The notes under the pieces were generated by a model that worked only from the letters and a program-made list of their open reading frames with translations, was not told where the DNA came from and did no database searches. From Barthelona sp. PAP020 (Eukaryota): a stretch of 47,747 bases of DNA. Of the stretch, positions 21,472 to 29,989 are shown one piece after another (position 1 is the stretch's first letter; the number at the start of each line of letters is the position of its first letter). The stretch spans positions 1 through 47,747 of the forward strand of contig JARQWU010000052.1 in assembly GCA_040182905.1 (NCBI GenBank). The letters are read 5' to 3'. Made by a program: the position numbers and the translations under genes.

Positions 21472-23211
21472 TTATTCAATGTCTTTACGAAAAGTAAAGT
21501 TACAACTTGCATCCATTGCTGTCTCCAAGGACTCAATGATGTTAATAATTTCAGAAAAAGTTGGTCTGTCATTCATTTCTTTGCTAAAACAGCGAATCAT
21601 TGGACATTCAAAAATGTAATATTGGATCCATGTATTACAAAACGGTTTTTCGAAAGGGAGAGGCAATTCTTTGCCATGATGAATGTGTTTCATAAACATA
21701 TTCTCAACAACATCATCATTTTTACCATAAAAAGGTCCATATCCAGTCATTAATTCAAAGAAGAGTACCCCAAATGACCAAGAGTCCATTCCAGGATGCA
21801 CACCAACTTCTTTTTCCCAAAATTCAGGAGGCGCATAACGATTGGTTTGTTTCAAAGAATTGAGACCATCCCTTGCTAAATCACGTGAATTTTCAAAACC
21901 ACAAAGGGCAATGGTCCAATTTTCCCTAATTGATACATTTTGAGGACAAATATTTCGATGAAGATAACCTTGACCATGAATAACACAAATGGCTTTTGCA
22001 ATATCTTTTAGGATGGAAAGTTTAGATACCAAAGATAAAGGTGAAGTTTTGTTTCCTATCAATCTTTCTTCTAAAGGTTCGTTTCTTTTCAATCTTTCTT
22101 TCAAAATTCTATCACTTTCCAATCTTTCTTTCAAAGTTTCAACAAAACATTCAGTCAGATATGCAACTTCACCATCAATGTATCCCCAAGCATACACTGA
22201 ATTAATAAATGAATTTCCTTCGAATCTTTTGGCAACACATGCCGCCACAGCTTTTTTTTCATCTTCCGGAAAAACAGCATTTACATAAACATTTCCATAT
22301 TTATATGTTCCTGATTTCTTACTATCATCATACGTAATTAGCTCCAAGTCATTTTCATCAAATACAAAGTTGTTTTCATCAAAGTCTTGGTCTCTCAACT
22401 TCAAATTCATCTCAAGAAATTTAACTATGGACATGTAATGTGATCCATTTTGGTCGTTTAGCAATTGAGAATAATCTGTATTTGCCCTGTCCTTAGCCTG
22501 AGTAATTTTAGAAAAATGCGAATCCATACGTTCACTAAATTCCATTAATTTGTCAATTTTATTAGTTTGATTGATGATTAATTCACTTTGCTCATCCATT
22601 TTTTTAGTTTGCTCATCAATTTGTTTTATCATGTAAACCAAAGATCGATCTAAACTTTTTCTACTTTCTTTCAACATCTGAGAAATATTCTCAGGGAGTT
22701 GATTAATAACAAAAAAAGTTCTTGAAGTCATCAAATTGTTCAAATCAAAAAGTAATTGATTGAATTCTTCATGAAACCCAAGTAATGTTTTAGTATCAAA
22801 TGGTGAAAATACATAACTTCCCAAAGCAGTACGTTCAGCAATTTCCTGAACCTTTTTTTCCGCATCCTCAACAACCATACAAAATTTTGTCAAATATTGT
22901 CCTAATGGATCAGTGGGACAGTTGATCTCCGAATATTTATGCGTTAATTCCGCAAAATTTGCTAACAAATGACAGCTTCTAAATTTAAAATCGTCAAGTT
23001 GTTTTTGAAGTTCTTCATGTGTCGTATGCAATTTGACTAGGCCACCAAGAGCTTTTATGGCGACTGATACACCAAGTGATACAGGATCAGTGGTAAGGAT
23101 AGGCAAACTTCCAGATGAAAGAAATTCCATGCCAACTTTTCTTATAACATCAACATAAGAGTTATTGCTCAAAAAATTACCAATATGGTTCAAAGCTTCA
23201 TTAATATCCAT
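21472..23211 (-). CDS. MLKL-like protein: four-helix bundle, coiled-coil brace and pseudokinase
   Basis: Kinase fold with VAIK->VYVN, HRD->HRN, DFG->GFE; YAPPE and DSWSFG retained. N-terminal helices KQ...R...LL and F...VEDA..KVQE.AER.....F...D resemble the MLKL N-terminal domain. Confidence 0.75.
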   Translation of the reverse strand: MDINEALNHIGNFLSNNSYVDVIRKVGMEFLSSGSLPILTTDPVSLGVSVAIKALGGLVKLHTTHEELQKQLDDFKFRSCHLLANFAELTHKYSEINCPTDPLGQYLTKFCMVVEDAEKKVQEIAERTALGSYVFSPFDTKTLLGFHEEFNQLLFDLNNLMTSRTFFVINQLPENISQMLKESRKSLDRSLVYMIKQIDEQTKKMDEQSELIINQTNKIDKLMEFSERMDSHFSKITQAKDRANTDYSQLLNDQNGSHYMSIVKFLEMNLKLRDQDFDENNFVFDENDLELITYDDSKKSGTYKYGNVYVNAVFPEDEKKAVAACVAKRFEGNSFINSVYAWGYIDGEVAYLTECFVETLKERLESDRILKERLKRNEPLEERLIGNKTSPLSLVSKLSILKDIAKAICVIHGQGYLHRNICPQNVSIRENWTIALCGFENSRDLARDGLNSLKQTNRYAPPEFWEKEVGVHPGMDSWSFGVLFFELMTGYGPFYGKNDDVVENMFMKHIHHGKELPLPFEKPFCNTWIQYYIFECPMIRCFSKEMNDRPTFSEIINIIESLETAMDASCNFTFRKDIE

Positions 23212-23599
23212 GATTTTCTTTTGAATTGATCATGAAAGAAAACAAAATGTTATCAATTTCTCATTTTCTCGATTTTTTTAAATCTCCAATCAAATGACTT
23301 TGTTTTGAATGACTAAATATCTACTTTAAAAGATTTATTTATTTGAAACATATTTGTTTCAATCCCGAAAATTGAAGTGGTTTTGTTGGTTTTGAAACCT
23401 TTTTCTTGAAATTTCATACTTTGTAGTTTTTGTTTTGTGGTTGATCAACGAATTATTAGGAAATTATTGTATCTTTGTAATATCTGTAAAACCACCAAAA
23501 GCTTCCAGATTGTTTATAACTAAAAAAAGACAATGAATAAAATCAACCAAATCAAACAGAATAGGAGATTCCAATAGCCAGAATATCGAAACTTCTATG

Positions 23600-28600: not shown

Positions 28601-29989
28601 GCTGATGTTAATTTGTGTAAGAATGATGGTGTTTCTCCATTGTACATCAGTTGTCAACAAGGTCATCTTGATGTTGCCAAAATGCTCTTGGATTATGGGG
28701 CTGATATTAATTTGTGTAAGAATGATGGTGTTTCTCCATTGTACATCAGTTGTCAACAAGGTCATCTTGATGTTGCCAAAATGCTCTTGGATTGTGGGGC
28801 TGATATTAATTTGTGTAAGAATATTGATGTCTCACCATTGTACATTAGTTGTGAAATAGGTCATCTTGATGTTGCCAAAATGCTCTTGGATCATGGAGCT
28901 GATGTTAATTTGTGTACGAAAGGCGGATTTTCTCCATTGTACATTAGTTGTGAAATAGGTCATCTTGATGTTGCCAAAATGCTCTTGGATCATGGGTCTG
29001 ATGTTAATTTGTGTCTTAATGATGGTAGTTCTCCATTGTTCATCAGTTGTCAAAATGGTCATCTTGGTGTTACCAAAATTCTATTAGATCATGGCGCAAA
29101 TGTTAATTTGTGTATGAATGGTGGTGTTTCTCCATTGTATGTTAGTTGTCAAAATGGTCATCTTGATGTTGCCAAAATACTCTTGGATTGTGGCGCGGAT
29201 GTAAATTTGTTTACGAATGACGATGCTTCTCCTTTGCGTATATGTTGTCAATATGGTCATCTTCATGTTGCTAAAATGCTCTTGGATTATGGGGCTGACA
29301 TTAATTTGTGTAAGGATGGTGTTTCTCCATTGAATGTTAGTTGTCAAAATGGTCATCTTGATATTACCAAAATGCTATTGGATCATGGGGCTGATGTTAA
29401 TTTGTGTACGAAAGGCGGATTTTCTCCCTTGAATATTAGTTGTCAACAAGGTCATCTTGATGTTGTCGAAATGCTTTTGGATCATGGGGCTGATGTTAAT
29501 TTGTGTGAGAATAATAATATTTCTCCACTGCTCTTCAGTTGTTATCATGGTCATCTTGATGTTGTCAAAATGCTTTTGGATCATGGGGCTGATGTTAATT
29601 TGTGTATGAATGACGGGGCTTCTCCATTGTATGTCAGTTGTCAAAATGGTCATCTTACTGTTGCTAAACTGCTGTTGGATAATGGAGCTGATATCAAATT
29701 GTGTTTGGACAATGGAGAGTCACCATTATTTGTCAGTTGCGAATGCAACCAACTGCATGTTGCTTTCATGTTACTGAATCATGGGTATGATGTTAATCTA
29801 TGCAGGAATGATGGGGCTTCTCCATTGTACATCGGTTGTCAAAATGGACATGTTGATGTCGTCAGATTACTGTTGAATAATGGAGCTAATATTAATCTGA
29901 AGGTCAAACAGGGATGGACAGCGATGGATATTGCCAGAAGGGAAGGTCATACCCAAATATTTGAGCTTTTAAATCCCTATTTTAATTGA
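25613..29989 (+). CDS. MLKL-like four-helix bundle + Ser/Thr (TKL-like) kinase + about 27 ankyrin repeats
   Basis: GRGCFGTV, VAFKK, HRDVKPDN, CDFG and FMPPE all intact. C-terminal 33-aa repeats SPLYISCxxGHLDVAKMLLDHGADVNLC. Confidence 0.92.
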   Translation: MTNPNTIKEFHDFLLKPFKENGLDQLSDDFFYLLPSLTTLPLETVQVLLEKYLCKCEKEEIYYLMLEVLNLLIIFQHLSKSQTKKEADNIKYETLYSIFSKLYQEICGYILEFFEHSGSKLLFVVCDLEIFIQFHFECEFLYCQLKTNFLSRIISFKKNSDNFFEMISDHVKGLSTRVWKIIKSQCKTFSFEACFLEKPQRKYKLLGILEEIKKTENKLQDSEVEETSEIDESDLDLLCFAGSIKGLNLGRGCFGTVFRAQYRENDVAFKKFLGKTNINKIKNECFVARLNHDHICKIYGITKKDSNNFGVVMEYCSSSLKDNIHRMTVIERVSNLLQIAKALDYLHNNGIIHRDVKPDNMLIKKDRTAVLCDFGFVGACDKDNRPKFSQSRFMPPEIRCGNSLSVHPGIDSYAFGVSFFQIMTGISPFEERKNKGPNNKPPMHETNNNSSKWRNLLSEGKDLFLEAEINWIPGYEFMLKCLDKNTEKRPLFCEIVEYLNELLSVLNIFYKYNSLKSILYGRSEDIPHFISPRILKNDVKTLQIFDKLHCFALNGKYEELKQFIDVNKHDVNEQDGLGGTCLCYACVKGNIELIKYLLFKCANVVLSFYDHTSPLHISCKNGHLDLVEILLDHGADVKLRMNNGISPLYISCETGHYDVTKILLDYGADVNLCENNGASPLFISCQEGHLDVAKMLLDHGADVNLCSKNGVSPLYISCETGHLDVAKMLLDNGANVNLCSNIGVTPLLISCQEGHLDVAKMLLDHGANVKLCSKNGGSPLYSSCSMGYPDVTKILLNCGDNIKLCTNSGPSPLHSCCLHGHRDVAEMLLDHGADVKCTNDGFSPLHFSCMYGHLDVIKMLLDHGADVNLCKNNGVSSLYISCEMGHLDVTKMLLDHGADVNLCTKVGFSPLFICCYFGHLDIAKMLLDHDADVSLCTHGNISPLYICCQNGYFDVAKMLLDHDAEVNLCDYNGFSSLYISCEIGHLDVAKMLLDYGADVNLCKNDGVSPLYISCQQGHLDVAKMLLDYGADINLCKNDGVSPLYISCQQGHLDVAKMLLDCGADINLCKNIDVSPLYISCEIGHLDVAKMLLDHGADVNLCTKGGFSPLYISCEIGHLDVAKMLLDHGSDVNLCLNDGSSPLFISCQNGHLGVTKILLDHGANVNLCMNGGVSPLYVSCQNGHLDVAKILLDCGADVNLFTNDDASPLRICCQYGHLHVAKMLLDYGADINLCKDGVSPLNVSCQNGHLDITKMLLDHGADVNLCTKGGFSPLNISCQQGHLDVVEMLLDHGADVNLCENNNISPLLFSCYHGHLDVVKMLLDHGADVNLCMNDGASPLYVSCQNGHLTVAKLLLDNGADIKLCLDNGESPLFVSCECNQLHVAFMLLNHGYDVNLCRNDGASPLYIGCQNGHVDVVRLLLNNGANINLKVKQGWTAMDIARREGHTQIFELLNPYFN
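27320..29980 (+). repeat. Tandem array of 99-bp ankyrin-coding units (about 27)
   Basis: Repeated ggtcatcttgatgttgccaaaatgctcttggat-type core. Units at about 28562-28823 are almost identical at the DNA level. Confidence 0.95.

Follow-up and report, generated by a model that had tools for sequence, protein, structure and literature searches.

The 47,747-nt window analysed here, contig JARQWU010000052.1 of Barthelona sp. PAP020, carries two divergent genes, which we call A and B. Gene A (23211-21472, minus strand, 579 aa) encodes a pseudokinase domain preceded by a helical head and a predicted coiled coil, which is an MLKL-like architecture. Gene B (25613-29989, plus strand, 1458 aa) encodes an orphan N-terminal region, a kinase domain and an ankyrin array. 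Both were delimited by open reading frames (ORFs) and Pfam matches, and A also by a EukProt match. We propose, by analogy, that the pair may be a RIPK3-MLKL-like kinase/executioner module that was assembled independently in a metamonad, a reading that we regard as plausible, if still short of probable.

Both genes are single-exon ORFs in a gene-dense window of about 30% GC, which also holds uninterrupted long eukaryotic genes, e.g. those for an adenylate/guanylate cyclase, FAP206, CCDC22 and an ESCRT-II subunit. The original prediction described a divergent pair 2.4 kb apart, and the ends of the ORFs agree with it: the two start codons are separated by 2401 bp (23212..25612), in which no stop-to-stop frame exceeded 81 codons in the ORF scan. 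The two kinase signatures that it quoted, RYAPPE in one gene and RFMPPE in the other, are also both present. The exact A protein is a EukProt record, and since its EukProt relatives are named as Trinity transcript ORFs, A is probably transcribed. The exact B sequence was absent from the protein collection in which A was matched. Overall, the anatomy of the A/B locus is largely real.

The C-terminal half of A has a kinase fold (Pfam Pkinase, E 1e-18), and Pfam together with a motif alignment places the domain at residues ~290-570 (21502..22344, minus strand). The domain has neither a Gly loop nor the beta-3 Lys, HRN replaces HRD at residues 418-420, and CGFE replaces xDFG at residues 437-440. 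All three catalytic residues are therefore lacking, and A is a pseudokinase, as had been claimed. Two full-length paralogues of A were found, P0003 (45% identity across 98% of A) and P0132 (31% identity in the alignment). Both lack xDFG; HRN is present in P0003 and HRD is retained in P0132. Because the head is kept and xDFG is absent in 3/3 full-length A-type proteins, the dead state is conserved and not the outcome of recent decay. The Asn-Ser of the activation segment (residues 451-452 of A) is likewise kept in all three. P0132 has an A-type head and B as its second-best kinase match, and thus bridges the A and B types; it also has a C-lobe motif in common with the B-type kinases. A shorter isoform of P0132, P0130, lacks most of the kinase as well as the first half of the head. 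All close relatives that were found (P0003, P0017 and P0130/P0132) are EukProt records labelled Barthelona sp. PAP020, and they comprise two further A-type pseudokinases and one kinase-ankyrin fragment. The family consists of at least three A-type and at least three B-type sequences.

We consider it likely that the head of A, at residues 43-165 (22717..23085, minus strand), is a four-helix bundle (4HB) belonging to the MLKL/HeLo type. In the ESM Atlas, the three best clusters for the A head carry PF22215 MLKL_N (score 0.89; 182-188 of 256 features in common; the family is found on 26-36% of members), and a family or clan is common to 10/10 of the best family-bearing matches. When a two-sequence head profile (A and P0003) was compared with the PDB, five of the seven matches were MLKL 4HB constructs (E 0.99-1.1), which count as one match, and profile positions 71-162 aligned to residues 27-117 of MLKL. 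With MLKL named as the target beforehand, the per-target P is ~7e-6 by our own division (E 1.2 / 177,635).

Several results weigh against this assignment. An Atlas score below 0.9 is only a lead according to the tool, and 10/10 agreement was also seen in one third of shuffled proteins. Taken as a blind search, the PDB match to MLKL is non-significant and ranked under two haemoglobin chains. Pfam gave no MLKL_N, HeLo or RPW8 match for A even at E 10. AlphaFold models of full-length A were poor, with a mean predicted local distance difference test (pLDDT) value of 35.5 for the single-sequence model and 41.6 for the four-sequence model. Among the matches listed for the A model, Foldseek gave kinases alone, and VIA-align gave kinases and generic helical hairpins, with no MLKL 4HB listed for the head. 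The MLKL-type bundle originally predicted in A thus finds support in the Atlas and PDB profile searches, but not in Pfam or in the fold searches, where generic helical hairpins were the matches listed for the head.

In the low-confidence models, the helices of A lie at residues 3-15, 19-32, 43-93, 102-129 and 137-161, followed by a long one at 169-252. Residues 1-42 (23086..23211, minus strand) hold two additional helices before the bundle, the first of which appears amphipathic (hydrophobic moment 0.59); basidiomycete MLKL-like domains and Goodbye domains are also reported to carry additional N-terminal helices (10.1101/2022.03.16.484565). The long helix (22456..22707, minus strand) is a predicted, brace-like coiled coil. 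Its heptad a/d positions are hydrophobic at 7-9 of 10 in three paralogues and the region has weak coiled-coil matches in Pfam, with a model pLDDT below 50 there. The order of bundle, long helix and pseudokinase is the domain order of MLKL. The description of A as MLKL-like in architecture, with a probable bundle, a predicted coiled-coil brace and a dead kinase, therefore stands. A search of 1.84 billion representatives with the A-head profile gave five matches, namely A, P0003, P0130, P0129 and P0131, of which P0129 and P0131 were rejected as repeat-protein artefacts.

The pair might also signal without killing, A being a scaffold or trafficking pseudokinase with a head that does not damage membranes. 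The MLKL assignment comes from two sub-threshold searches, and residues 41-170 of A have a net charge of -5, whereas a tetramer model of the MLKL 4HB is reported to show a positive pocket (PMC10603135). In addition, the immunity conferred by AtMLKLs is described as separable from death (10.1101/681015). However, both searches name the same family, at the position predicted by the MLKL architecture, and the first helix (residues 43-61) is hydrophobic and contains Gly. We judge a non-killing pair to be very unlikely.

The kinase domain of B (26345..27127, plus strand) retains every catalytic motif by Pfam and motif comparison: GxGxxG at residues 250-255, K270, E284, HRD at 353-355 within a Ser/Thr-type HRDVKPDN, DFG at 373-375 and PPE at 395-397. 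The kinase, which had been called intact, is thus predicted to be competent as far as its sequence goes.

Downstream of the kinase, the ankyrin array of B (27242..29986, plus strand) contains 28 repeats by motif spacing, 24 of which match Pfam Ank individually. An array of about 27 variable repeats had been described; the array and its variability are confirmed, and the count is 28. Nucleotide identity among 25 of the repeats ranges from 52 to 98%. The best internal identity is 87% over 100 aa (residues 984-1083 vs 1017-1116), so the array passes the mark, 85% or more identity between repeats across 100 aa, that is reported to be enriched in fungal NLR sensors (PMC4986451). The variable positions in the 22 central repeats are 1, 3, 5, 9, 13 and 14. 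Four of these are among the six positions that we take to be the binding positions of DARPins, at which amino-acid-changing differences per site amount to 0.386, compared with 0.140 elsewhere. Other measures of this variation count against the proposed module. Silent differences are also raised at the six positions (0.376), giving a ratio of amino-acid-changing to silent differences (pN/pS) of ~1.0. The ratio is 1.37 (bootstrap 1.04-1.94) when near-invariant columns serve as a post hoc reference for what are non-independent repeats, and it is 0.67 with a looser 8-position set. On these figures we rejected the claim that the ankyrins are under proven positive selection. Judged by where its repeats vary, the array appears sensor-like, with variation mainly on the binding face, and B retains its description as an intact-looking kinase joined to a sensor-like ankyrin array.

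The N-terminal region of B, residues 1-235 (25613..26317, plus strand), had been described as a second four-helix bundle, and this bundle, although possible, was not confirmed. The region had no match in Pfam, the PDB or a homologue search, in which none of 638 candidates (proteins of 801-2552 aa) matched at E 1, and no usable match in the ESM Atlas; hhalign to the A family gave 0.2-0.3%. HMMER nevertheless aligned B 91-229, just before the kinase, collinearly with positions 104-247 of the A-family profile. This long, in-register alignment bears on the idea that B is an all-in-one receptor, made of a degenerate bundle, a kinase and ankyrins, and that A is a helper or brake that hetero-oligomerises with it through related heads or kinase surfaces, phosphorylation being dispensable. 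A similarly long collinear alignment arose in only 9/1000 and 3/1000 shuffles of two types, although the statistic was picked after the alignment had been viewed. The summed global score of the B head against the A family has a z of 2.65, with 0/300 shuffles as high, and a wheat MLKL is reported to be activated by a linked sensor without detected association (10.64898/2026.08.07.743466). On the other hand, the alignment scores -3.8 bits with composition correction (849/1000 shuffles as high) or 2.1 bits without it (50/1000), and single-pair local z values against the A-types are -0.13 to 1.98, compared with 17-18 among true A-type paralogues. We hold the all-in-one arrangement to be unlikely; from the weak collinear alignment it is possible that the B head is a degenerate relative of the A head.

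For the kinase/executioner module that we propose, the following mechanism can be envisaged. The variable face of the B ankyrin array would bind a foreign or damage-related molecule, as the location of the variable positions suggests, and the B kinase, whose motifs are intact, would be turned on. B would then dock on the A pseudokinase and, as in RIPK3-MLKL, phosphorylate its activation segment, where S452 and T456 are the candidate sites. A would oligomerise through its long helix so that the bundle becomes exposed, and the exposed bundle would permeabilise a membrane and thereby kill either the cell or one compartment.

Human MLKL is reported to be activated by RIPK3 phosphorylation and to tetramerise via a brace coiled coil (PMC10603135). 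The vertebrate system (4HB structures PDB 6zvo, 6ux8 and 2msv) resembles the pair in its pseudokinase, in the bundle and long brace helix that are predicted for A, in the Ser/Thr of the activation segment and in the presumed activation by an active kinase. It differs in that the N-lobe is far more degraded in A and two further N-terminal helices are predicted there, the presumed ankyrin sensor is fused to the kinase, the two genes are neighbours, and A and B have no RHIM-like motif. The core of the RHIM follows the pattern [IV]Q[IVLC]G, and a simple pattern search found it in none of A, B, P0003 and P0132, which speaks against a RIPK3-MLKL-like module. The best 60 PDB sequence matches of A included neither MLKL nor RIPK3, so no orthology is implied. 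With no RHIM-like motif and no orthology shown, we do not regard the A/B pair as a member of the RIPK3-MLKL axis. RIPK4 and ANKK1 are kinase-ankyrin proteins and resemble B in having a kinase followed by C-terminal ankyrins, but B has 28 repeats and an extra 235-aa head. In its internal conservation above the 85%/100-aa mark and in the variation on its binding face, the B array is also like the ANK sensor arrays of fungal NLRs.

Among plant proteins, AtMLKL1-3 (PDB 6ka4) and the wheat R3NLR/R3AK pair, and presumably Pm13, have a HeLo domain or 4HB, a brace and a kinase or pseudokinase, much as predicted for A; AtMLKL3 matches the A model via the kinase lobe alone (Z 8.5, root-mean-square deviation 4.2, 146 aligned residues, rank 20, tied with other kinases). 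Plant MLKLs are described as sharing the architecture probably by convergence and as able to act in immunity without cell death (10.1101/681015), a precedent that weakens the case for a killing module here. In monocots, repeated independent fusions of a 4HB to a kinase are reported, and the wheat R3NLR/R3AK genes, a head-to-head NLR/MLKL pair, are reported to kill via the MLKL 4HB with R3AK as the helper (10.64898/2026.08.07.743466), which is a precedent for the proposed module. For fungi, a review describes death clusters of two or three genes and fusions of HELL to a kinase or pseudokinase (PMC12881547). NLRs and amyloid motifs act as triggers in the fungal HeLo/HELL/Goodbye/MLKL-like systems that have been described, whereas no NOD domain is present here and the A/B kinases fall in a clade whose members found are all Barthelona-labelled records.

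That clade was seen in a tree of 70 kinase domains. The kinase domains of A and B share 29% identity over 324 columns, and the A- and B-types together form one clade against 65 other kinases with a support of 97 in the SH-like approximate likelihood ratio test (SH-aLRT), the A-types having 99 and the B-types 92. The two domains are thus paralogues, in agreement with the original prediction. The tree was a quick IQ-TREE run on five focal rows and 65 of 121 database matches thinned by identity and length; its branches are long, the careful search was unfinished and no row is named MLKL or RIPK3, so it is silent on RIPK3/MLKL orthology. On these sequences, the A- and B-type kinases are one lineage-specific clade that holds Barthelona-labelled records only. 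With both kinase domains derived from one lineage-specific ancestor, the module was likely assembled independently of the animal, plant and fungal MLKLs. The closest paralogues of A (SH-aLRT 99) lie outside the window, which indicates that A and B are not the products of the latest duplication.

A third family member, gene C (30246-31628, plus strand), lies directly downstream of B and was absent from the original prediction. By Pfam and alignment it is a broken B-type kinase with a short ankyrin copy, most like P0017. It has an in-frame stop at 30843-30845 and frame changes near 30900 and 31100, the front of the kinase is missing, and it is a pseudogene or an assembly error. For gene C we considered decoding TGA as Trp but rejected this, because B and a nearby WD40 gene end on TGA and C has two frame changes as well. 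A non-coding repeat occurs at 1-117 and 30082-30200 (78% identical), and its second copy is just upstream of gene C, at the place of the missing front.

We then asked whether the adjacency of A and B reflects a partnership. Barthelonids are free-living anaerobic metamonads, and with 5,000-6,300 genes per barthelonid genome (Table 1 of PMC11316075) the chance, under random gene order, that one of three B-types adjoins one of three A-types is ~0.003, a rough estimate of our own in which the family sizes are lower bounds. This value excludes chance placement, but not local duplication. Other observations at the locus go against a partnership. Divergent orientation was found in 8/21 neighbouring pairs in the window, counted from 22 hand-picked ORFs that exclude gene C and the pieces at 43.7-45.8 kb, and is therefore common and not above chance. 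The other seven divergent gaps measure 78-578 bp, and the A-B gap of 2401 bp, at least four times wider, speaks against a tight shared promoter. Of the head-to-head pair that had been emphasised, then, the orientation and the 2401 bp are correct, but the orientation is no rarer than chance here. Contig scans gave no second A-B locus, so that one A-B pair is known. For the A-type, 0/251 metagenome and 0/476 viral pattern matches were confirmed. For the B-type, 6/96 metagenome pattern matches were kept, all of them generic kinases (22-28% identity) or a 29-residue patch and none matching an A-type head, and the counts were 0/76 for prokaryote-genome and 0/47 for viral pattern matches.

These observations fit the main rival reading, in which A and B belong to an expanded lineage-specific kinase family and are adjacent because an inverted duplication took place long ago in a changeable stretch with few genes, each having other partners and the pair no special function. 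We think this somewhat unlikely as a full account, yet not to be set aside lightly. The broken gene C directly behind B indicates that the family duplicates locally, several members of both types exist, divergent orientation is common here, and no gaps in the window are wider than those flanking A, B and the WD40 gene. Against it, A and B are deeply diverged in the kinase and nearer A paralogues lie elsewhere, so that the linkage would have to be long-lived, and random gene order alone would rarely have placed them together. For the adjacency itself, old local duplication accounts as well as selection does.

Other features of the window were also noted. The WD40 propeller gene (32907-34115, plus strand; 402 aa) has a single exon and also lies in the gene-sparse stretch; EukProt contains its exact protein, and it is a candidate repeat-type sensor. 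Convergent with gene A, a 1235-aa protein encoded at 17110-20817 (plus strand) has two adenylate/guanylate cyclase domains and hydrophobic segments. A non-coding element of ~320 bp occurs twice in opposite orientation (32121-32437 and 46608-46911, 86% identical) and is possibly a small mobile element. The AT-rich region 43771-45790 (minus strand) reads as one long gene in pieces, with a stop and frame changes, and encodes helical, charged segments and a single hydrophobic one; three of the pieces had no meaningful Pfam match and the longest had no PDB match.

The original prediction placed the possible novelty in a linked, functionally split pair. Because linked MLKL helper/sensor pairs in wheat, with an NLR as the sensor, and clustered necroptosis-like genes in fungi are already in print, the linkage is less new than supposed there; what is new is the lineage. 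In a survey of 67 protists, no homologues of necroptosis regulators were reported, and these were concluded to be likely vertebrate-exclusive (PMC7539657); descriptions of MLKL-like proteins from plants and fungi have followed. A full-text literature search, covering few subscription papers and no supplements, found no MLKL-like pseudokinase in a metamonad, nor one paired with a kinase-ankyrin gene. The sole paper found with both 'MLKL' and 'metamonad' mentions MLKL in a figure legend on the effector candidates of a bacterial symbiont (10.64898/2026.04.11.717937).

Without a functional link between A and B, the finding would modestly widen the range of a domain combination that is already known. 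Both genes are short and single-exon, which makes direct tests of the idea feasible in yeast or in vitro. If true, a bundle-brace-pseudokinase family in a metamonad would extend this architecture to a deep-branching anaerobic lineage, and a linked activating kinase would be another independent invention of a kinase-to-pseudokinase death switch. In its boldest form, which we consider doubtful, a metamonad would have evolved, independently and out of its own kinase clade, a full necroptosis-like switch, with a family of MLKL-type pseudokinase executioners each genetically paired with, and phosphorylated by, a self-diversifying kinase-ankyrin sensor; this would amount to receptor-triggered lytic defence in a free-living, mitochondrion-reduced, single-celled anaerobe.

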